A stretch of 64,000 nucleotides of DNA from Sporopachydermia quercuum (lineage: Eukaryota). This document shows, piece by piece, positions 4,580 through 40,514 of the stretch. The DNA is taken from assembly GCA_001599295.1 (NCBI GenBank), contig BCGN01000009.1, positions 62,001 to 126,000 on the forward strand, read 5' to 3'. The translations under genes and the position numbers were made by a program. Positions within the stretch are counted from its first letter, which is position 1; the number at the start of each line of letters is the position of its first letter. The notes under the pieces are model-generated. The model saw only the letters and a list, made by a program, of their open reading frames with translations. It was not told the DNA's origin and did no database searches.

Positions 4580-6490
4580 ATGGGCAGAAGTGATGTTCTT
4601 TCCCGAGCAGAAGTCGAAGATCTAATAGCAAATGGTAATATTATAACGATATATAAGCAGAAAGTTCTCAAGCTTGACAACTGGATTGAAAAACATCCCG
4701 GTGGTGATAAAGCTGTATACCATTTGGTAGGACAAGATGCTACAGAGATTATGGATGCTTATCACTGTCCTGAAACTAAAAGGAAGTTTCTTGGTTTTCA
4801 AATCGGTGTGATTGACGGAAAGTGGATGAATTTTAGACCTCCTATTCAAGGCGGAGTGTTCAGAACCAAAGAAGTGCAGAGAAAAGAGAAAGCACGTGGA
4901 TTCGACGATGAATTTCCGCTGAGTCATAGTAACGATAGAATAACAGAAGAGATACTTGCGGAGATGGCAGAAAAGAGGTGCAAACTGCGAAATCGGGCAA
5001 ATCTGGTAAATGATGGAAATAATAACCTTGGATTGCCGAAGAATGCCGGAAACTTTTCTTCTGCTAGTAAAAGCGGCTCTGAAACCTCTGGAAGTCCTGA
5101 AAGCCTGGAAACCTCGTTTGATTCTGACAATATCAGCATCGAATGTATTGCCAGCTCGGACACGTCTGCTTCGGACATTGATATAATCGTTGTAGACTCT
5201 GCAGCTTCTACCGTCGGCAGCACCAGCACCAGCACCAAGAACGTCGACCCAACTCCTGGCCAATCAAAGGCAATTTTCGACCCGCAAATCGTTCTGTCTC
5301 CCACCCTGCAAAATGAAACCCTTTCTCTACAAATATACGAGGAAAACCTGAAAAGAAAAGACCTGGAATCCTTTCCGAGCTTGGATTACACTTCCCAGGA
5401 GCTGCTCATAAAGGAGTACAATGTTCTAGAAGAGAAAATTCAGTTTATGGATCTTTATAAATGCGATTATTGGGGTTATTTTCGTGAAGCCTGCAGAATA
5501 TGCTCATTATTCCTATTCTCAGCATCTGCCTTCAAATCTGACCATTTGTTCTTCTCTGCTTTCTGTATGGGAGCCGCCTGGCAGCAGATGACGTTCATAG
5601 CTCACGACGCGGGCCATGTAGCCATTACGCATAACTATGAGATAGATAACACGGTTGGGATGCTAATTGCTGATTTCTTTGGTGGATTATCATTAGGATG
5701 GTGGAAAAGGAACCATAATGTGCATCATATCATCACCAATGATCCAATAAATGATCCTGATATTCAGCATTTACCCTTTTTCGCAGTATCAACAAAACTC
5801 TTTGGCGATGTGTACTCTACATATTATGAGAAGACATTGTGGTATGATGCAGCTGCTAAATGGTTTATTCCTATTCAGAATTATACATATTATGTGATTC
5901 TTTGCTTTGGGAGGTTTAATCTTTATAGGTTGTCATGGGAGCATTTAATTAAAGGATTAGGACCCAGGAAAGGGAAAGCAGCTTGGTTTCGGTACATGGA
6001 GCTTTTCGGATTATCATTTTTCTTTTACTGGTTTTTCTATTTGGTAGTTGGGTCATTAGATAGCTGGAAGGCAAGAATTGAGTATATTTTAGTATCACAT
6101 GTTACTACAATGCTCGTTCATGTTCAGATTACGCTATCGCATTTTGCAATGTCGACCGCGGATCTCGGAGTGAGCGAATCGTTTCCGCAAAGACAATTGA
6201 GAACAACAATGGATGTGGATTGTCCCGATTGGTTTGATTTTATTCACGGGGGGCTCCAGTTCCAAGCCGTGCATCATTTGTTCCCGCGGATGCCGAGACA
6301 TAATTTCCGGTCGGCACAGCCTTTGGTGATTGAATTCTGCGAGAAAGTAGGTTTAGAGTATTGTATATATGGATTTGCGAAAGGGAATGCTACTGTTATT
6401 GGGAAGTTGAGAGAGATAGCCAATCAGGCAGTTATACTGTCAGAATGTATTAAGACTATGAAGCAGGAAGAGCTGTTGACTCCAATGTGA
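4580..6490 (+). CDS. SLD1: Delta-8 sphingolipid desaturase (cytochrome b5 fusion, front-end desaturase)
   Basis: HPGG cytochrome b5 motif; His boxes HDAGH, HNVHH, QAVHH. First in-frame ATG is at 4580 (the ORF track starts at a TTG). Confidence 0.92.
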   Translation: MGRSDVLSRAEVEDLIANGNIITIYKQKVLKLDNWIEKHPGGDKAVYHLVGQDATEIMDAYHCPETKRKFLGFQIGVIDGKWMNFRPPIQGGVFRTKEVQRKEKARGFDDEFPLSHSNDRITEEILAEMAEKRCKLRNRANLVNDGNNNLGLPKNAGNFSSASKSGSETSGSPESLETSFDSDNISIECIASSDTSASDIDIIVVDSAASTVGSTSTSTKNVDPTPGQSKAIFDPQIVLSPTLQNETLSLQIYEENLKRKDLESFPSLDYTSQELLIKEYNVLEEKIQFMDLYKCDYWGYFREACRICSLFLFSASAFKSDHLFFSAFCMGAAWQQMTFIAHDAGHVAITHNYEIDNTVGMLIADFFGGLSLGWWKRNHNVHHIITNDPINDPDIQHLPFFAVSTKLFGDVYSTYYEKTLWYDAAAKWFIPIQNYTYYVILCFGRFNLYRLSWEHLIKGLGPRKGKAAWFRYMELFGLSFFFYWFFYLVVGSLDSWKARIEYILVSHVTTMLVHVQITLSHFAMSTADLGVSESFPQRQLRTTMDVDCPDWFDFIHGGLQFQAVHHLFPRMPRHNFRSAQPLVIEFCEKVGLEYCIYGFAKGNATVIGKLREIANQAVILSECIKTMKQEELLTPM

Positions 6491-7777: not shown

Positions 7778-9013
7778 ATGGATCCTTTACAAGAAACATC
7801 GTCTCCTTCACCATCATTGCGCCCAGTTTTAAGCCCTGAAAGCCCCGGTGGATCAGAACCAACCGTTAAGACATCTTTCGTGACCGCCAGATCCTTTTCT
7901 CCTAAACCAAGCAACGATTCAAACAGCAACTCTGCTTTGGTCAATTTCGAACAGTACGCCAGCAACAGCGATAGCGGCTACAATAATAATAATAATAACA
8001 ACACATTGGCTAATATTTCAAACGAACCGAAACTATTGAGCCCGAATTTCGACCGCGGCAGAGTTGCATCTTTTTCTGAAGCCATCGGCGAAACATTCTC
8101 ATCCATTAGAAAATCACTTGCTGGTGAATTGTTTGACGATATTTCCGCTGAAGATAACGCAGCTACCTTTGCTGAAACTGAATATAGTAGCAATAACTTC
8201 AACACTAACCCCAACACAACTTCCCCTCCTACAACTGCTGAAAACCCAAACGCAATGCCCAAACGTCGATTCGGTAAGAAACTATTCTCATTCTCCTCTC
8301 CAAAAGTCCAGCCAGAGGCTCAAGAACCTCATCAGAACTTCTGGGATTATGATCAACTAGATGAAATAGAATTGATAGGATACTATCAAACGACCAAACG
8401 ACGGCTTATGAGTAAAGAATTAAGCAATGAATTACGAGATAAACTACCGCCATTGTTAAGGCTGCATTCTACCTGGCATTTATGCTATAGTTTAGAACAG
8501 CATGGAGCTTCATTATTGACGCTGTATGACAAATGTGCAGTGCTAGTTAAAGGGCAAACTACAGGTTATATTGTATGTCTAACTGATACTAAAGGCACTA
8601 TTTTTGGTGGGTTTTCCAACGAGCCTTTTCATATAGTAGAGTCCAAGAGATACTATGGAGATAGTTCGTGTTTCCTATGGTCTTTCAGGTATTTGGATAC
8701 CGACAGGAGTAGGAAAAGTACCAATGATGATAATAGTAGCAACAATGAGAATGAAGAAAAGCCTTACCAATTCAAAGCTTTCATGTATGGTGGGAATAAA
8801 AACAACTCACTGAACAGTCCCATTCCGTTATGCGTGTTCTCTACTAGTAAATACTTATCAATGGGAACCGGTGGTGGTGCCTATGGTTTATGGATGGATG
8901 ATAGGCTAGAGAAAGGTGTTAGCCAAAGATGTGAAACGTTTGGAAATGAGCCATTAAGTGCTGTTGGTGAGAAGTTTGATATTATTAATGTAGAGGTATG
9001 GAGGGTTAATTAG
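7778..9013 (+). CDS. OXR1: Oxidation resistance protein 1 (TLDc domain)
   Basis: WHLCYSLEQHGASLLTLY, IFGGFSNE, YYGDSSCFLW, GLWMDDRLEKGVSQRCETFGNEPLS, FDIINVEVWRV. Confidence 0.92.
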   Translation: MDPLQETSSPSPSLRPVLSPESPGGSEPTVKTSFVTARSFSPKPSNDSNSNSALVNFEQYASNSDSGYNNNNNNNTLANISNEPKLLSPNFDRGRVASFSEAIGETFSSIRKSLAGELFDDISAEDNAATFAETEYSSNNFNTNPNTTSPPTTAENPNAMPKRRFGKKLFSFSSPKVQPEAQEPHQNFWDYDQLDEIELIGYYQTTKRRLMSKELSNELRDKLPPLLRLHSTWHLCYSLEQHGASLLTLYDKCAVLVKGQTTGYIVCLTDTKGTIFGGFSNEPFHIVESKRYYGDSSCFLWSFRYLDTDRSRKSTNDDNSSNNENEEKPYQFKAFMYGGNKNNSLNSPIPLCVFSTSKYLSMGTGGGAYGLWMDDRLEKGVSQRCETFGNEPLSAVGEKFDIINVEVWRVN

Positions 9014-10902
9014 AAAGAGAGGGAATGAGGGAATGAAGAAAGAAGAATGAGCATAGTGATCTTCGGTGATAGAATCCAAGGTTTAATGTTTGTCGACTGA
9101 TTACTAATTGATTGGCTGATTAGCTGACTGACTAATTGACTATTTATATAAGGATAGATGACATTGATAAATCTTTTCCTTTACCAAGAAGGAGGCTTTT
9201 CTGTATTAACTATGATCTTCAACAGCCTATAGCCAGTCATTCCCTAGAATTAGGCTCTATTGATACTGAAATGAACTATTAAATAGTTGTCTTTCAGCCT
9301 CTCTTTTGTTATCATTTGCGCTCCAATAAGATCCATATTCAATAACTATTTCATCTTAAATACATTGAGTTCAATACAAACACAATCGCGTTACCGCTCT
9401 ATTATGATAACCGTTGATCACCTGTCCAAACTACTGTTAAACTGCTACGCATCAACCCTGCTGTCATGTAACATTTGCATAATCCTGTCTTCAGTTTAAC
9501 TTTAATCTGTTTTTAAGTTAAACTCAAAAATAAGCTCTAACCCTAATTGTCTTCTTAAACTAATATCATTTCAAGGTTAAACCTTATTCAGACACTGTCC
9601 TCAAGAGCTTCGCACTTAGTAGAACGTGAATCTCTGGTTTATTTTTAAATTAATTACATAAAATGCTCAAGCTAAAAAATGAGGATCTCTTGTGTTATGT
9701 TGATACATATCAATGGCTAATTCATATGTGTATTGTATGTGAAATTGAACACCATAGTGTTCTTCCCGTGTCCCCCGACTCTCATAAATAACCAAAAGCT
9801 TGACTGGAGCTCGGAGTAAGGATTGGCGTGGATACTCATGAAAAGTGTCCCAAGGTTCCTTACCTTCACTTCATCAACAATAATTCAAGCTGAGCAAAGC
9901 AGAAAGTGAAAGAACCACACTTTAGATTCCTGCAAGCACGGTTCGTTGATCGAGTGAACCTCATCAATCCTACCCTTTATATCATATTCATAACGACGAA
10001 AGCTTGAAGTTATTTTATCTATAAAACTGGAAACGGAGACATAAAAATAGGATCAAATATCCAAATTAAAGCAAGAAATGCGGTTCAGATGCTGAAATCA
10101 TCCAGTCAATTTTGATGGCCAGATAAACATGTCTAACCGTTCTGGTCAGTCGTAATGTTTGATTTGATAGCGATGAACCATTGCACAGATATTGGACAAT
10201 AACCAAATTCTTTAAGAGACATTCAACAACGAAATCCCAGTTTTGTTTGATTTGGGAGCCTTTTGCATTAATTTCATCAACTAGTAATGCTGGGTCGTGG
10301 GATTGCCGATATTTGATAATGACAATTGAACCTCATCGTCGGGTCATTGTCATTGATTGTGTGCAGGAGCCGTTCTCGTTCCAAGCCTACTCAATTGATT
10401 AAAAATCTCTTTCTTCCATCCTGGCAATAATCGAAGAAGTATCATAATGACATTGTTTTTGCAAGGACCCAAAATAAAAGAGATCACACCATCACGTATG
10501 CTGATCTGCTGGCTCGTGAAGGTACATCTTTCTCTGGCCAAAAAGCCCATAAAGCTCATCAAATACCGGGACCCTTCCTCAAGATGGGGCAGCTCTTGCT
10601 GATTTGAACACTAAGAAGGGTTTCGGCAAGTTCTCTGATACTTCCCCAGTTCATAAGCTCAGATATCAGTTCAGGTGTAGGCGAATAACTGATACCCACA
10701 TCAAGAGCAACCACTTGATCAGGATTTCTCACTCTGTCGTCTACATTTGGTAGAAAATAAAATGGGGTCTCGTTATACCTGCCTGTGAAATATGGTGGCG
10801 AAGGGCTGATGGTCGTTCATGTCTATAGGATTTCCCATTCGTTTCTTTTGTATCCGTTCCTTTTTGCTCCCTTTTCTGTTTCTTCAAGGAAACATCCGTT
10901 CT

Positions 10903-11239
10903 TGACAGTACCTATTGGTATTGAAACAGACATCTACGATATTTGACGACATATTCAGATATCGTAGATATCTCTTGACTCAAGAGAACGGGAAACTACC
11001 ATCGCCAAAAGGTATTAATGAGTTAGCAGATATGTTTAGAAAGAGTAATGAGAGTCCCAGCACTGTTATATTAGTACTGGATTAATTGTATCATCTAATC
11101 ACCAGAGACCAGAACCCTCTAACCTTTTCTCGTGGGCCGTCCAGCCTAATTCCATTCTGACATTAATTGGTATTGCTACTGCTCTTGCTTTAACTGTTAG
11201 GTTTCTTCCTACCTCCTTAAGTCTGACAGTACCTATTGG
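10903..11239. repeat. Perfect 16-bp direct repeat TGACAGTACCTATTGG (10903-10918 and 11224-11239) flanking the CDC6 fragment; probable target-site duplication
   Basis: Exact 16/16 match read directly; it brackets the CDC6-similar segment. Confidence 0.9.
10919..11223 (+). pseudogene. CDC6: Internal fragment of a CDC6/Cdc18 AAA+ ATPase gene (Walker B to sensor-1 region), inactivated
   Basis: Translates to (V)LKQTSTIFDDIF...STVILVLD*LYHLITRDQ, then after a frameshift NLFSWAVQPNSILTLIGIATALALTVRFLP..LKS. This matches the Cdc6 pattern VLVLDEhDhLhTRDQ..LFxW...NSxLxLIGIANALDLTDRFLPRLKS. A TAA at 11083-11085 replaces the Walker B Glu. Confidence 0.85.
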
Positions 11240-11722
11240 AACAACTTCCACACTCTCTGCTCCCAGATATTGGTCCTACTACTACCTCAATGCATGAATT
11301 GTTCGTATTAGTATCACAATNCTGTGCTTCCATGAGTAAATCAATGATCACGTTGGCTCCCCGTTCAACCAGTGGGCATTTTATATCCAATAGAGAACTC
11401 TTGAAATATCTTCCAACCAAATCTATTACCATTATCAACGGGAATTGTTATGGTTTGTTATGATTTTCCCACTTATTTCCAGCCCCAGTTCCATTGATAC
11501 TTTGCTCTACTGCTCCTAGCAAAGTTGAAGCTTTGGTTAAGTGAATCCGACCGTTAGAAGATTCCTGTTTGAATATTCCTGTCGAAAAGTAAAAGCTGGT
11601 GAAAATTGGAGCCGTATCACTTGCTCCTGAAAGGCAATTGTCTTGTTCCAACGATTGAATTAGTTCATCCTCTTGCTTCCCAGTGCTACTTTACATAAAA
11701 CATAAACTGTTGAAATTAAAGT

Positions 11723-11803
11723 ATTCAAGCCATTTAATCCATTCAAGCCATTAAAATCACTCAAGTAATGCAAGCAATTCAGGCAATTCAGGCTGTTTAA
11801 ACC
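11723..11803. repeat. Degenerate 9-bp minisatellite (consensus ~ATTCAAGCC, ~9 units)
   Basis: attcaagcc atttaatcc attcaagcc attaaaatc actcaagta atgcaagca attcaggca attcaggct gtttaaacc. Confidence 0.65.
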
Positions 11804-11889
11804 AATCATAAGCCATGTTGGAACTTCACTTGCTTCTCCTGCCTATCAAAGCAAACTTGTACTTCCATTAAAAGAAAACCGCTCTTCTT

Positions 11890-13681
11890 TCAAAGCAGAA
11901 ACTCGTCATCGTCATCCAGTTTTCTGCCAATGACTTTCTCCTTTGCTTGAGAGAACTCGACAGGATAGAAATCCTGCAGTTTCGCTGANAAACTGTTGGA
12001 TTTCTGTTGGCATCTCTTGAGGTTTTTCTCCACCTGTTTGATGGTTTTATATCTCGTTTTCATTAGCTTTTTGATATCTTCGGTTCTTTGGTTTAATTGT
12101 AAGAGCAACGATTCGATCTCACGGACTTTCGAGTTGATGATTCCTGAGCTAGAAAAGACGAGATGAGGATTTGTTAGTAGATAGGAAGAAAAAGAGGGAG
12201 ATGATGAATTGTTGGATTCTTATAGTAGACAGGGCCGTCATACGAGATGATGATACGAGAGAGGCATGGTAACAGAGAAGAACAATAGCCATAGTGACAA
12301 TGATAGTATAACAGCATTCAATGACAGAATTGTACGTCAAATTGTATGCCAAATTGAATTCCAGCTGCGATAGAATCGGGACAGAATGATAGTCATGGGC
12401 GTAGTGATAATAGCTGGCATTTACTATGATACTATTATACCATAAAGATGTGTCATATGCATATGGAGTACCAACTATTAGTTTATCGTCAACTGTCGTA
12501 CTGATAATAACAGTGCATAATAGTTCATGAGATTTCATAACAATTCACACTAGGGCACCATCAACAGCTATATCTATAAAAACTATAACTTGTGATTGAT
12601 GCCCAATGAGCTACTGGCGCTGTTCTCTCACCTGAATTGGAAATGAGGGTATGAGGTTTAGTCCATGATTTGTATGTAAGGAAAAGAATCTTCCAGCCGG
12701 TTTCTGGTTGGTTTTATCAGAAAGATCATCCTTTTACCTCCAGCTTCTATCAGTTGTAACCCTGCATAGTTACTGCAGGTTGGTGATCCATTGTTGGCTG
12801 ATATCCTATCATATTCATCATATCCCACCCTCATCATCAGAATCCACTTCTAATCCATCAAATACTTACGTTCTAGCCTGCAAAACAATAGCTCTATCAA
12901 GCTTGGAAGAGTCTAATGCATTATTCAGCTGATTGATCAAATAGCCATCAACTGAAAACTGATCAATTCTATCGTAGCTTAAAACATCAGCAAATGAAGA
13001 TGTAACTGAATCATCATCCGTTTCGTTATTACCTGCTGGATGATTGCTGGAATATAATAAAGCCTTTATATTGTCAACATCAACATTGTTAGTAACTTCC
13101 TGGTTTTCCTGGTTCTCTTGGTTCTGTTCATGGCTATATAGTTTAATACTATCATCGTTGTCATTAATTCTCTTACTTCTATTCCTCTCATTTATACCAC
13201 TATCAGTCGAGCCAGCGTCTTGCAATAAGTTTCTACTGTTATCCATGTTTTCCTCTATTTCTTCTTCTATCTCGTTTTCCTCTGGCTCCGGCAGAGCAAA
13301 CGTCCTACTAGGTACAATAGGCCCTTGGTTATATACATAGCCAGGTCTCCGTTGATAAGGAGAGCCATGGATATCATCATCAGAATCTACCTGGTCGTTA
13401 TGGAGACTGAATTCATCTTGAATATACTCCTCGGCTGCGTTAAATGAGTCATTGAATGTCGATGATAACGAAACAGAACGTAGTCTGAGGTTTGTAGCTG
13501 ATTGAGACCCAGTAGCATTGGAATTAGTAGTTTTGCTTGTATTGGTAGTATTGGTTGTGTTAGAAGTCATATCAGAGCTTCTGCTCCCGATAGAAACACC
13601 AGAAAGCTCACTGATGGTTCTATTTCGACTTTTGGAGTTTCCTGTGGCTTTCGTTTGATTATTCGGCTGCATTTTGGCCAT
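11890..13681 (-). CDS. KXD1: BLOC-1 subunit Kxd1; exons 13681-12870 and 12148-11890, 721-nt intron
   Basis: GTAAGT donor at 12869, TACTAAC at 12179-12173, TAG acceptor ending 12149. The spliced product reads LDRAIVLQARTSGIINSK...YPVEFSQAKEKV, typical of Kxd1. Confidence 0.85.
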
Positions 13682-14931: not shown

Positions 14932-17900
14932 ATGTCAAGAAATCTCCAAGCCCGAGATCAAATGAGGTCTCGGCTGAGACCTTTTGGTATAGTGTGAGTA
15001 CACAATTATGCAGCTTCTAACTTCTCCTAGGATCATAATCCTTATTACTATTGTTGTTTTCTTTATTTACTAACATCTCAGGTTTGAAAAATCTTTGACA
15101 GATCTCATTAATGGCATCAGAGCTCATCCGAACCCTACAGAAAGAGAAAAGTTCCTTCAGGACGCTGTGGCTGAATGCAGAAAAGAAGTAAGAAGTGCTG
15201 ATGTGGAATTAAAAACAATGGCTGTGTTAAAACTGGCTTATCTTGAAATGTATGGCTACGATATGACCTGGGCCAATTTTCACGTTTTAGAAGTAATGTC
15301 TTCTGCTAAATTCCAACAGAAAAGAGTTGGTTATTTAGCAGCTATTCAAGGGTTTAGAAATGATACTGATGTTCTTATGCTTACTACTAATTTGCTCAAG
15401 AAGGACCTTGCTTCTCGACATATTATTGATATTTCAATGGCTTTAAGTGGGACTGCATCTTTTGTTACGTCTTCTTTAGCTAGAGATGTCTGTGATGATA
15501 TATCTAGAATGCTTACTCATTCTAGGCCTTACATTCGGAAGAAAGCTGTGCTGGCTATGTATAAGATATTTGTTCACTATCCTGAGGCTCTACGGACTAT
15601 TTTCCCTAGAATACGGGAAAGGCTTGAAGACGATGATCCCAGCGTTGTATCTGCTACTGTTAATGTTATATGCGAGCTAGCCAAAAAGAACCCCCGGAAC
15701 TACCTATCGCTGGCTCCTCAGCTGTACGAGCTGCTCCAGGAGTCAAACAACAACTGGATGCTTATCAGGATCCTCAAATTGTTTTCCTCGCTGGCTCAGA
15801 TTGAACCCAGACTGAAACAGAAGCTCCTGGGACCAATTATGGATCTGTTGGAGAAAACTAGTGCTGATTCGCTGAAATACGAAGCCATTAATTGTATAAT
15901 CACTGGTGGGATGCTCGATAGACAGATTTCGGAAATGTGTGTGAAATACCTGGTGGAATTCGTGGAAAGCGATGATCAGAACCTGAAATATGTAGCCTTA
16001 TTGGCGTTCTGCAAGATTGCCAAGCTCCATCCCGTCTTTCTACACGATCACGACCAAATCATCCTTAGTTCTATTGACGATGGAGACATCTCCATCCGAG
16101 AACGGGTTTTGGAGCTCATTTCTGGCATTGTCAATGAAGACAATATTGTAGAAATTGTGAACAAGTTGATGGTGCAGCTGCTGCCTTCATTGCAAGACCA
16201 GGACGATGATCTAGAGGGAGACAGTGAAAATAGCAGCTTGGATCCTTCTTCCAGTGCTCATGAAGAGAACATTGCTATTGGGTTCAATAAAAGGACCCTC
16301 CAGAAAGAACTAGACTCGTTGGCTCTTCCCGACAAATACCGTAGCGATGTCATTCGCAAAATAATAGCCATTTGTTCGTTTGAAATGTATAAAACGATCC
16401 CCAGCTTTGAATGGTACATTGCTGTGCTGACAGACCTGGTGAAACTAAGCAGGAGACTATCGCCCTTGCTAGCATACGAAATTGGCGAGCAGATCAGAGA
16501 TATTGCCGTGAGAGTGCCCAACGTTAGAAGCACGGTTGTTGTTGCCTGCTTAAAACTCGTCCTGGACATTAACATTGTAACTACCTGTCCTGGGATCCTC
16601 CCGCCTGTAATGTGGGTCATTGGCGAATTTGCCAGCAGTGTGCCAACCGATTTATACGATATTGTCAAGAACATCCTTAGAATCATGCTTAATGCTTCCG
16701 AGACTCATTCCACTGCTCTAGACGCAGAGACTCTGGTTATATACTTGCAAGCGTTGCCTAAGCTTTTTTCTACTATAGCCAATGCTAATGGCAATAGTGG
16801 AAACGACAGCACGAGCTGGGCTGGCTGGGATTCGTTCAAAGCGGAAAAGATCATAGGCTTATGCCAATTGTACGTACAAGTGTTTGAAAAATACTCGGTA
16901 TCAATTTTCTATGAGGTCCAGGAAAGAAGCGTTGAGTTTCTAGAACTATTCAGAGTTCTCCTAGAAGCTGTTAAAGAACATCCATCGAATGCTGATGAGC
17001 CTCCTTTGCTGTTATCCCTGGCATTGCCGTCCTTGTTTTCTCTCTGGACATTAAACCCTGTAGCTAAGGGAACCCAGTATCGAATTCATCCTCCGGCAGA
17101 TTTGGACCTGGACGAAGTTATATATTCAGAAAGCAGCCTTGGCAGTGGCGATGATGGTGATGGTGATGATTATGGTGATAGCAGGCTGTTTTCTGAGCCG
17201 GAAGACGATGATGAGGACTACGAGCTCTACGGTGACGACCAGGATACCCCAGGGGCTTACGGTGAAGGAAACCATGAATGGAAGAGCAGNGTTAAAGGAA
17301 TTGTTGTTCATGATGTCAGGAGCGAAGAAAGTAATGAGGAGACACTTAGAAGGAAGCAGGAGCGGCTGGAACGTCAGAAATACGATCCTTTCTATATATC
17401 CAGCGGGAAAGAAGAGTCTAAAGATGTTTCTACTGCTAGCAGTGCCAATGGCCTTAGTAACAGAAGCAGCAGGAATAATTCGGCGAAATCCAGCGCGTCT
17501 CCGGATGCCGATAAGCTAGATATTGAAGAAATCTCTATTAATGCATTGTCGTTAGCAGGCGATCGTAGCACTGGAGCTGTTACAAAAAAGAAAAAGAGTA
17601 AAAAGGTCAGGAAACCAGAGATTCTTGCTGACGAGACCGTGTTTGGCGATGAAGACGCTGATCTAACTGTGCGAGGTATAGCCATTGCAGGCAAAGTCGA
17701 TAGCAGTAGAAATAGTGGATTTTATAGTGATGAAACAGGAAATAGCATTGGTAAAGGCGGAATTAAAGGGATCAAGCAGGAAAAGAAGAAGAAAAAGAAT
17801 AAGCTGATGATCGACACATCGGAGCTTGATAGTTTTGATATTGAGAAGGAGAATCCCAATGACGACGGTAACGATGATGACGTTAATAGCATTGACATTG

Positions 17901-18169
17901 AAGCATTGAGAAAGCAGCTGGAGGGATTTCCAGTTAGTAAACAAGCAGAAGAGGAGCCTTTAGGTAAACCTGTTATTAAGAAGAAGAAGAAAAAGGTATC
18001 TTCTAAAATAGTAGTAGGCGATGATAAGGAGAAGAAGAAAATGAATAAAAAGAAGAGCAAAGAGAACGAAGGAAAAGAAAGAAAGATAACGGTGGATGAT
18101 GAAGGAAATGAGGTTATAGTTGTTTCCAAAAGTAAGAAGAAAAAGCCGAAAGTTGCCCTGATTGAGTGA
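14932..18169 (+). CDS. APL5: AP-3 adaptor complex delta subunit; exons 14932-14993 and 15082-18169
   Basis: Spliced N-terminus RLRPFGIVFEKSLTDLINGIR; KLAYLEMYGYDM, FHVLEVMSS, QQKRVGYLAA. GTGAGT donor, TACTAAC branch, CAG acceptor. Confidence 0.94.
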
Positions 18170-19571
18170 TGAGTGAAAGTATTGGTAATTACCAAAGGAT
18201 TGTCTGGAAGATAGAAGTTTATTGCTGTTATTAATATACTATAACATAAATAGTAGAAAATTATTAGTATTGATANAAATATAATCAAATTAGTGCTATT
18301 ATTATCATTTAGGGCTGTTGATAATGGCTTCCCAAGAATCCGTTGAGAGTCCTCTACTGTAATATGTGATTTGCTGAAAGTGCTTTCGATATGATTCAAT
18401 GCTAGGTTTCTCACTGTTATGAAAGCAGAGATAGAATTGAATGTCAATGTTCTTCTCTTCTCAGAGTTTAGCTATATTGATTAAGCTGCAACCGTTTTAT
18501 AGTAACAAGAAAATTATAATAAAACAAGTAAATGGCATATAAAAGCATCAAGTGACAGCAATAAATAGGAAAATTTTCGAGTAGTTCCAACCGGTACAGG
18601 ATTTCGAACATTAGGGGAAGTTTCCCTAAGAAATTAGTACAATAATTCTATTTTCTGTTGTAGAATTCTGCTCCAAGGAAATATCCTGTACCGGGTTCTG
18701 CGTGGGAGCTGCTCCAGGTATCACAAGGAATTTGTTGAGGCCACCTCTGGCGCACCTCTGGCACTAATCCTGTACTAGGGCTCGTAGGAGTTTGTGCTAT
18801 TGTTAGCGCAAGTTAGGAATGAGCCAATGATGGCATTTTGGAGAATTTATTATAAATCTGCTGAATTAATTAATCATAACGGTTAATTATTTAAATCGTT
18901 TCACAAGATAGCAGAAAACAGTACACACTGTTTTCTTGGTTTCTGATGATTCATAGAGTGTCAAACAGTAGTTATACTCTCGGTAACTATTAATTGTTAT
19001 TCATGAAGGCGCAACTGGCAATCTTCCGAAGAAGAACTATGATAAATCAGATCTATCAGCAAATAATTACAATCAGTTTATTCTTTCATCTGTTGTCCTA
19101 TCACCCTTTCAGCGAAAGCAGATTCCAGCTTATCCGTTTATGGTGTGTAGTTCATACACAACACACTACAATCTACTGCAATACAATAAATATATATCAA
19201 TTGAAACATGAAAACACATACAAACATATGTAGACATAATCATCTATATAAATCACATATAGATAATATTGCATGACCTGTGTACCAATTGATTTGATAT
19301 GATTTAAATATGCAATCTAATGAATAACTAATAATTCCCCGTTAAAGTTGTTCTTATAAATCCTTCTTCATTCCTTCCTCCTTTCCCTCTTATGCTTTGA
19401 TACTATCGTATACTTTCGCTATAATGTAGTAGTAGTAAACCTACTAGCACTATTGTCAATATATTGAACTCCTACTCCAAATATCTCTTCTCCTCACTTC
19501 TTTTCTCTAACAGAGAATATGAGCCGTTTTAATAAATGTATGTCTTTAAAATCCTTCCACTGGCTATTCAA

Positions 19572-21382: not shown

Positions 21383-22691
21383 ATGCATTTCACATTTGCC
21401 GATACCTGTTATACAGTGGGGAAATGGGAAGTCTCCGTGCTTACCTGTTGTTCTTATATCATTGACTGGTTTATATACCTGTGCGTGTCACCTATACCCT
21501 TTTCTGGGTTAACATTCATTTGATAACTTTGAAATACCCAAAACTTTTAACATATCCTCTTTGATCTTGCTACTAATCGATACCCCTTATCTTATAGAAC
21601 CTTTATTGGAGCATTTGGAATAATGAGCAGAAGTAATCCTCGCTATGTTGAATTCTCTCTCAAAGATTATAATCTATGGTACTACTATTATCCAGAATCT
21701 CAAACAGCTGTTCCTTTCTGGTTGTTGATACTACTGGCTGTCATCATTCCATGTTTGCAGATAGTAATTGATGCTATGTTAGATTTTAAGAGCAGCAAGA
21801 AGAGAAGATTATGGGATCTACATATTGGACTATTATCTTTAACAGGAACATTATCGTTAGTTTTGATATTTGTCACGGTCCTGAAAAACAATACTGGACT
21901 TCCAAGACCCGACATGGTAGCAAGATGCCAACCGTGGGATTGGGACCTTCCACCTTCAGGACAATTATCAAATGTGGGTATCTGTTCAAATCCTTATCTC
22001 GGAGTTGTAAATGCCGGATTTCGATCATTTCCAAGTGGACATGCTACGAGTAATTACAATACCATTGAATTTATAGTTTTATCATAACACATTGATACCA
22101 TCACAATTTCTAACACTATGTTCTTATATCGCTATAGCAATATTTTCCACATCAACTTTACTAGCATTAATTGCTGCTGGTAGATTGAGAGTTGCTGATG
22201 GAAGAGGACTTTCTTTGAAAATATTCTTCGTTATTTCACATTTCATCACAGCTACTTACGTGTCTGCTACTAGAGTATCGGATAACCGTCATTTCTTACG
22301 TGACGTGATAGCGGGGGCAATACTTGGAATTTTTATTGGCACATTTATGTACCATTTGTACTATCCCGCAGTATTCAATTTGGAAAATGGAGGACGAGCA
22401 TTTCCTCCAAGGAGATTTGGCATAGATGTATATCATAACGGTGTGGGAGGTTTTTGGGACCTTGGAAATGAACCAGGTGCATACAAGAAAAGAACAAAAG
22501 TCCCAGGAGAAGAGTCATCTAATTATGAATCATCATATCAAAATAGCACTCCTATTGAAGGTACTTATATACCACCTGAACCATCGAAAGTCTATGAAAA
22601 ACCAAAGGAGAAAGAAAAGAGGATGTTTAGTGGTGAAGGATTTGGCATACAGAAAAAGATATCCAAGGCATTTAGTATTGAAAAGAAGTGA
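21383..22691 (+). CDS. PAP2-family lipid phosphate phosphatase (Dpp1/Lpp1-like); exons 21383-21480, 21598-22049, 22138-22691
   Basis: Catalytic motifs KNNTGLPRPD, SFPSGH and TRVSDNRHFLRDV; N-terminal SYIIDW. Two introns (GTGCGT..TACTAAT..TAG; GTAATT..TTCTAAC..TAG) restore one frame. Confidence 0.85.
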
Positions 22692-40440: not shown

Positions 40441-40514
40441 AGGAAGGTCAGTTAGGAAGGTCAGTTAGGAAGGTCAGTTAGGAAGGTCAGTTAGGAAGGT
40501 CAGTTAGGAAGGTC
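40441..40514 (+). repeat. Perfect tandem array of 13-bp unit AGGAAGGTCAGTT, ~5.7 copies
   Basis: Five exact units (40441-40505) plus AGGAAGGTC, read directly. Confidence 0.97.

Follow-up and report, generated by a model that had tools for sequence, protein, structure and literature searches.

A 305-nt Cdc6-like fragment bracketed by an exact 16-bp duplication in a probable gene relic of Sporopachydermia quercuum

The DNA analysed here, referred to below as the window, is a stretch of 64,000 nucleotides of Sporopachydermia quercuum (contig BCGN01000009.1, positions 62,001 to 126,000) that has the look of a budding-yeast chromosome arm and carries a formin gene, a cytochrome-b5 desaturase gene and other ordinary genes. 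The desaturase gene (4580–6490, plus strand) encodes a 636-aa protein in which a cytochrome b5 domain at the N terminus accompanies a fatty-acid desaturase domain, a type of gene that many other yeasts have and S. cerevisiae is not known to have. The window contains 23 N letters at 22 places, nearly all of them single bases, as is typical of a draft consensus; those near the locus described below, at 11321 and 11989, both lie outside it. Elsewhere on the plus strand, a PAP2-type phosphatase is spread over two overlapping frames (21551–22087 and 22077–22691), the N-terminal half covering profile positions 2–58 and the C-terminal half positions 58–126; the frameshift near 22080 reflects either pseudogenisation or an erroneous base.

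A spacer of ~3.85 kb (9013–12866) separates the OXR1-like gene from the following ORF; it contains no long ORF and has many open stretches on the minus strand (Table 1). Its appearance is that of a gene relic, of which the contigs of the organism contain at least two paralogous loci at other places; within the window no paralogue of it was found. An Rfam search of 9000–13000 returned no match. Toward the far end of the spacer, a KXD1-like frame on the minus strand (11893–12219) reached 34.2 bits with the Pfam KxDL model, above its cut-off of 27.2 (E = 3.3e-8). This frame has no in-frame ATG upstream of the domain, contains the N at 11989 and may be truncated, split or likewise decaying.

Table 1 Features at and around the insertion (positions in the window).
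Feature	Position	Strand	Evidence or remark
OXR1-like TLDc gene	7778–9013		
Putative host gene relic, downstream of the insertion on the minus strand	10353–10918	−	Frame across the junction; paralogous contig match at 10696–10776
Left copy of the 16-nt target-site duplication (host sequence)	10903–10918	n/a	Exact repeat; single copy in the paralogous contig
Inserted fragment, probably Cdc6-derived, 305 nt	10919–11223	+	Sense on plus, antisense to the host relic; translations, Cdc6 matches, second locus
Template of the small inverted patch inside the insert	10932–10946	+	10955–10969 is its reverse complement, 14/15
Inverted patch	10955–10969	+	~12 net extra nt (10959–10974) relative to the parent-like contig
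Core matched by the parent-like single-copy contig	10975–11112	+	17 mismatches and a 3-nt indel over 138 nt
Walker-B-like relic VILVLD, then in-frame TAA	11065–11085	+	Motif reading only
Frameshift zone, 4 nt shorter than the parent-like contig	11113–11123	+	Contig loose end against window 11113–11138, by eye
Sensor-1 block relic NLFSW...LIGIAT...RFLPT	11121–11213	+	Aligned to human CDC6 299–329 and Drosophila Cdc6 153–181
Right copy of the 16-nt target-site duplication	11224–11239	n/a	Exact repeat
Putative host gene relic, upstream of the insertion on the minus strand	11240–11690	−	Frame 11220–11690; paralogous contig match at 11220–11270
ORF bordering the spacer on the far side	12866–13681		
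AP-3 delta adaptin	15218–18169		

Within the spacer, the 16-nt sequence TGACAGTACCTATTGG occurs exactly twice at a spacing of 321 nt and brackets a segment of 305 nt, as a preliminary description of this DNA had stated; together with one copy of the repeat, the segment amounts to 321 nt, equal to 107 codons. By analytical calculation, chance would yield 0.018 exact 16-mer pairs at spacings up to 500 nt in a 64-kb window, and 200 first-order Markov simulations yielded a mean of 0.025 such pairs, with 1% of the simulations containing any, which places the chance at ~0.02 per window. Repeated 16-mers form 20 runs in the window. The other short-range ones are microsatellites, homopolymers or a single 13-nt tandem array, the latter located at 40441–40514 with at least five copies of the unit AGGAAGGTCAGTT, and the other long-range ones number three, in line with the ~1.2 expected anywhere. 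The pair described here is the only complex close-range repeat of at least 16 nt in the window. Shorter exact repeats are somewhat in excess (6 observed against 1.1 simulated for k = 14 at spacings of 50–3000 nt), and the others of this length sit in coding repeats or AT-rich sequence. A 15-mer pair at 19049/20580 was considered as a second capture-like event and rejected, since inspection of the bracketed segment revealed nothing capture-like, and an extension of the 16-nt repeat to include 'TC', the two sides differing in length by one T (left, TCTTGACAG; right, TCTGACAG), was not beyond chance.

The bracketed segment has the stop, the frame change and the altered residues in a Cdc6-like Walker B and sensor-1 region that the preliminary description had reported. 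The plus-strand frame 10906–11082 reads ...TIFDDIF...STVILVLD and then meets TAA at 11083–11085, where the Walker B Glu would stand, so that, as read by eye, an intact Walker B motif (a hydrophobic strand followed by Asp-Glu) is absent from the fragment. Past the frame change near 11113–11123, the plus-strand frame 11052–11294 reads NLFSWAVQPNSILTLIGIATALALTVRFLP, in which the sensor-1 position is occupied by Thr (11178–11180) instead of the Asn of the aligned human and Drosophila Cdc6 proteins.

Searches with this segment point weakly to Cdc6. The 39-aa stretch encoded by 11106–11222 gave four PDB matches at E ≤ 10, the top three of which were statistically weak matches to Cdc6, namely two human CDC6 sequences (E = 0.07) and Drosophila Cdc6 (E = 0.79), each aligning on its own sensor-1 block and hence at the homologous position. 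With an 81-aa version, human CDC6 again ranked first at a marginal E of 0.31. The Walker-B-like stretch alone matched no Cdc6 (a 22-aa search gave 0 matches), Pfam and NCBIfam returned nothing relevant for the fragment, and the ESM Atlas returned nothing usable. Word-indexed searches with 11052–11294 and with 10906–11112, the stop being entered as X, produced 322 and 6 candidates, respectively, none at E ≤ 10; the big protein collection that was searched contains no exact copy of the OXR1-like protein of the window, and the proteome of the organism may be missing there. A profile of archaeal Orc1/Cdc6 built from 18 full-length proteins (from 27 matches in five genomes, nine being dropped as partial, below the family cut-off or containing a stop) gave nothing above noise against 1920 six-frame pieces of the window, the Walker-B piece reaching E = 89 and the sensor-1 piece failing to appear among the matches at E ≤ 100. 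We read this result as that of a profile too distant to inform and not as evidence against Cdc6. The assignment of the fragment to Cdc6, significant in no single search and with a best E of 0.07, is a weak one.

The similarity stops at the repeats. The plus-strand flanks of the insert gave one match (to rusticyanin, E = 1) and 0 matches, respectively, and none to Cdc6, and they lack Cdc6 or Pfam matches for the Walker A, lid and winged-helix parts, which marks the segment as a fragment and not a gene. No poly(A), LTR or terminal inverted repeat was found to bound 10919–11223, and neither a gene start nor a gene end was found there, in agreement with the preliminary description; the 3′ end of the insert, ...CCTCCTTAAGTC, lies inside the coding region.

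Contigs from public sequencing runs were compared with window positions 9000–13000 at 80% likeness, the contigs of the organism totalling 17–18 Mb. In each of two runs from two studies, one contig (62.8 kb in X1 and 19.1 kb in X2, with depths of 33.7 and 98) covers all 4001 nt with 0 differences; these are contigs and not raw reads, and the runs may be the source of the assembly itself. Three further single-copy contigs of the same depth each match another part of the locus, at 10696–10776, 10975–11112 and 11220–11270. Run X4, which belongs to the same study but bears the label of a different organism, contained two ~240-nt contigs identical to window 9920–10150 and 11758–12002 at a depth of ~2, which most simply represent carry-over between samples and, taken as such, are uninformative on relatives or on an orthologous empty site. 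No contig of run X5 fell on 9000–13000.

The contig matching 10975–11112, which is 15,957 nt long, is ~86% identical to the window over this core and has depths of 31.7 against 33.7 in X1 and 95.5 against 98 in X2, indicating a single-copy locus and a retained donor. Both of its loose ends (30 nt each) resemble the window and keep the same frame open, and the match breaks off precisely at the ~12 extra nt of the window (10959–10974) on one side and at the 4-nt-shorter zone (11113–11123) on the other. Among the 17 substitutions counted, five are listed, and four of these are synonymous in the frame of 10906, being third-position changes at 11022, 11025, 11037 and 11040, while the fifth changes Ser to Asn at 11054; the 3-nt indel is in frame. 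This pattern of largely synonymous changes with an in-frame indel fits a parent under coding constraint. The parent CDC6 that the preliminary description had suggested seeking in the same genome is thus probably represented by this second locus, which is visible as a 138-nt match and two 30-nt loose ends and would be an intact CDC6. The decay of the copy comprises the stop at the Walker B Glu position, the 4-nt loss shifting the frame, the one-codon indel and ~12% substitutions. Since only two loci match the insert in the 17–18 Mb of contigs, the insert is not a repeat family.

The sequence on either side of the insert reads in the opposite direction. When the insert is removed, one minus-strand frame of ~150 codons with two stops crosses the junction; the minus-strand frame 11220–11690 comprises 157 codons with one stop, and long minus-strand open frames extend from 11690 down to ~9670. 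Because minus-strand frames run across the junction, the host would be a decayed minus-strand gene in which the Cdc6 piece lies antisense. Frame continuity suggests a single host gene, its two paralogue matches sitting on different contigs. The host relic gave no family match in the PDB, Pfam or the Atlas, and a word-indexed search with the host frame 11220–11690 left no match at E ≤ 10 among its 322 candidates. With 10562–10816 (minus strand) as the query, an exhaustive HMMER search returned five matches at E ≤ 0.001, all to large repeat proteins of the bacterial Ig-like families Calx-beta (three), HYR_4C and TIG with scores summed over 4–8 repeats. An Ig-like repeat family as the host was rejected because these are three unrelated families with repeat-inflated scores.

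A paralogous contig of 51 kb matches 11220–11270 with six mismatches, and its loose end before 11220 finishes in 14 nt identical to window 10887–10900, just left of the left repeat. By this 14-nt identity, the left flank, one copy of the 16-mer and the right flank are contiguous in the paralogue, which constitutes the empty site that the preliminary description had proposed to look for. The 16-mer belongs to the host, since this contig holds one copy of it between left-flank-like and right-flank-like sequence.

The insert also contains a small internal rearrangement. The inverted match of 14/15 between the patch and its template was reached by 0 of 300 shuffles, the shuffle maximum being 13. 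By eye, the parent-like loose end before 10975 resembles window 10933–10958 and then joins directly to 10975, the patch being absent. The patch may be an extra template switch of the type reported for such insertions, and a later quasi-palindrome mutation is equally possible. In addition, the start of the insert (10919–10928, TATTGAAACA) matches host positions 11234–11243 (TATTGGAACA), comprising the end of the repeat and the right flank, at 9 of 10 positions (P ~0.014 by shuffling), a match that is predicted by neither simple junction model.

Given the repeat, the Cdc6-like content, the second single-copy parent-like locus, the empty site in the paralogue and the later decay, all of them shown above, we propose, with a probability of roughly 0.62, that ~305 bp of the organism's own CDC6 was copied into a minus-strand gene relic by DNA-level templated insertion and that the copy has no function. 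The outline given by the preliminary description, an internal Cdc6-like fragment in a decayed host gene with a target duplication, is borne out by the parent-like copy elsewhere and the empty site in the paralogue. The copied span would be the middle of CDC6, from just upstream of Walker B through sensor 1, with the donor kept, and the insertion site would be the minus-strand gene relic that has the OXR1-like gene on one side and the KXD1-like gene on the other, with 16 target bases duplicated. A duplication of this length requires either 16-nt 5′ overhangs that were filled in or the return of a nascent strand 16 nt upstream. By the first route, two nicks 16 nt apart would produce 5′ overhangs, these would be filled in, and a free or newly synthesised CDC6 fragment would be end-joined. 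By the second, a nascent strand would switch template to CDC6 and return 16 nt upstream of its departure point in the style of MMBIR/FoSTeS. We infer a single old event during repair, and the insertion would have either inactivated the host gene or been neutral.

Templated insertions at double-strand breaks of budding yeast have reportedly been studied by Yu et al. in 2018, among others. In the accessible parts of two papers, break repair in yeast is described as inserting ~10–1000 bp of genomic DNA by a copy-paste route that depends on Yku70 and end joining and leaves microhomologies at both ends, with essential genes serving as donors as often as their share of all genes predicts and with insertions that often hold a second, inverted piece from the same locus through microhomology-mediated template switching (PMC11724301, PMC12214859). 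The CDC6 insert resembles these Break-Ins insertions, so far as those parts describe them, in its size range, its retained donor, the possibility of an essential-gene donor and the inverted piece a few nt away. It differs from them in being fixed, old and natural, whereas the insertions in the accessible text arose at a laboratory HO break with 4-nt overhangs, and in its 16-bp flanking duplication, of which that text describes none for Break-Ins insertions (PMC11724301, PMC12214859).

Two features of the insert, the 16-bp duplication and the 14/15 inverted patch, are those of template switching. MMBIR, or fork stalling and template switching, is said to have been set out by Hastings, Ira and Lupski in 2009. 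Like MMBIR/FoSTeS events, the CDC6 case has a distant locus as the template of its insertion, a short duplication at its flanks (by return of the strand upstream) and possible extra small switches, and it differs from them in being a single short insertion without a larger rearrangement. Mitochondrial DNA and Ty cDNA are likewise captured at yeast breaks, according to the accessible parts of the same papers (PMC11724301, PMC12214859). In such NUMT-type or Ty cDNA captures, by general account, foreign DNA is joined into a break during repair and undergoes neutral decay afterwards, as appears to have happened here, whereas the donor of the CDC6 insert is a nuclear single-copy gene. We know of no NUMT-type or Ty cDNA captures with 16-bp duplications. 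Features of Pack-MULE, Helitron or MITE elements were not found, as the insert has no terminal repeats and only two loci match it in 17–18 Mb.

Among the alternatives to templated insertion, the one that survives best, and which we nevertheless consider unlikely, is that reverse transcription of part of the CDC6 mRNA, either by a LINE (with target priming, internal priming and 5′ truncation) or by a Ty reverse transcriptase, yielded a cDNA that was then integrated or captured. L1-type insertions typically have target-site duplications of 7–20 bp. The 16-bp duplication falls within this usual range, and the fragment derives from coding sequence as in L1-type processed pseudogenes. The inverted patch could also be a template switch of the reverse transcriptase, such switching being ascribed to insertions of the yeast L1-type element Zorro3 in S. 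cerevisiae in the accessible part of a review. Against this stand the lack of a poly(A), of an mRNA 3′ end and of an A-rich nick site, the target being TGACAGTACCTATTGG; target-primed reverse transcription is therefore unlikely. Zorro3, the one yeast L1-type element treated in that part of the review, integrates into poly(A) tracts, and the L1-type option raised by the preliminary description thus fits poorly. Furthermore, no reverse transcriptase, endonuclease or Ty sequence lies in or beside the insert, no LINE RT/EN genes were found within the window, the large ORFs of the window contain no reverse transcriptase domain, and no tRNA gene was found near the insert.

A slightly less likely alternative is that the whole ORF-free spacer was put together from pieces copied out of several genes, as a complex or nested multi-donor insertion in which the CDC6 piece is the most recognisable part. 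Consistent with this idea, the three extra contigs represent three different loci that each match one short stretch, the searches run assigned the host to no protein family, and complex multi-donor insertions are described in the accessible text of the break-repair papers (PMC11724301, PMC12214859). However, the stretches at 10696–10776 and 11220–11270 share one minus-strand frame with only two stops in ~150 codons, the minus-strand open frames from 11690 to ~9670 are as expected of a single decayed gene, and the 51-kb contig holds both flanks of the CDC6 insert contiguously.

A broader claim, for which we see still less prospect, is that this yeast has or formerly had a recurrent means of copying short internal pieces of genes into breaks with ~16-nt staggered ends and that the spacer has accumulated such pieces, with three or more donor loci represented and the CDC6 piece simply the easiest to read. 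The preliminary description had similarly pointed to a process of gene-fragment capture in this lineage, which found no backing here, with only two loci matching the insert and no second capture-like event in the window; one old event does not demonstrate such a process.

The remaining explanations for the repeat-insert-repeat arrangement have very little in their favour. Integration of a small CDC6-derived DNA circle by a single crossover within a shared 16-mer would give just this product, yet CDC6 and the host would have to share the 16-mer by coincidence, and the host paralogue already has the 16-mer in its host context, leaving this route highly improbable. Equally improbable is a simple pseudogene or segmental relic of CDC6 reaching past the repeats, the 16-mer pair then being coincidental; the region is full of decayed coding sequence, but the flanks, in which the preliminary description would have had Cdc6 similarity count against capture, have no Cdc6 match and are contiguous in the paralogous locus, and such a repeat is expected by chance only ~0.02 times per window, so that this explanation is largely refuted. 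The least probable of all is an assembly chimera, which the N letters of this draft assembly might suggest and which the preliminary description had also considered, because both junctions are crossed without a difference, at the depths given above, by independently built contigs of two studies, whose runs may have served for the assembly itself.

These comparisons place the CDC6 insert among ordinary repair scars of a known kind, and no new mechanism, function or active capture system is shown by it. Laboratory yeast and cancer genomes have been the subject of much work on templated insertions at breaks. To our knowledge, few fixed natural templated insertions have the donor, the empty site and the junction duplication all visible. 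The CDC6 scar has a retained donor, an empty site and a 16-bp target duplication, along with a possible internal inverted template switch, and it records how a repair event looks after long neutral decay.
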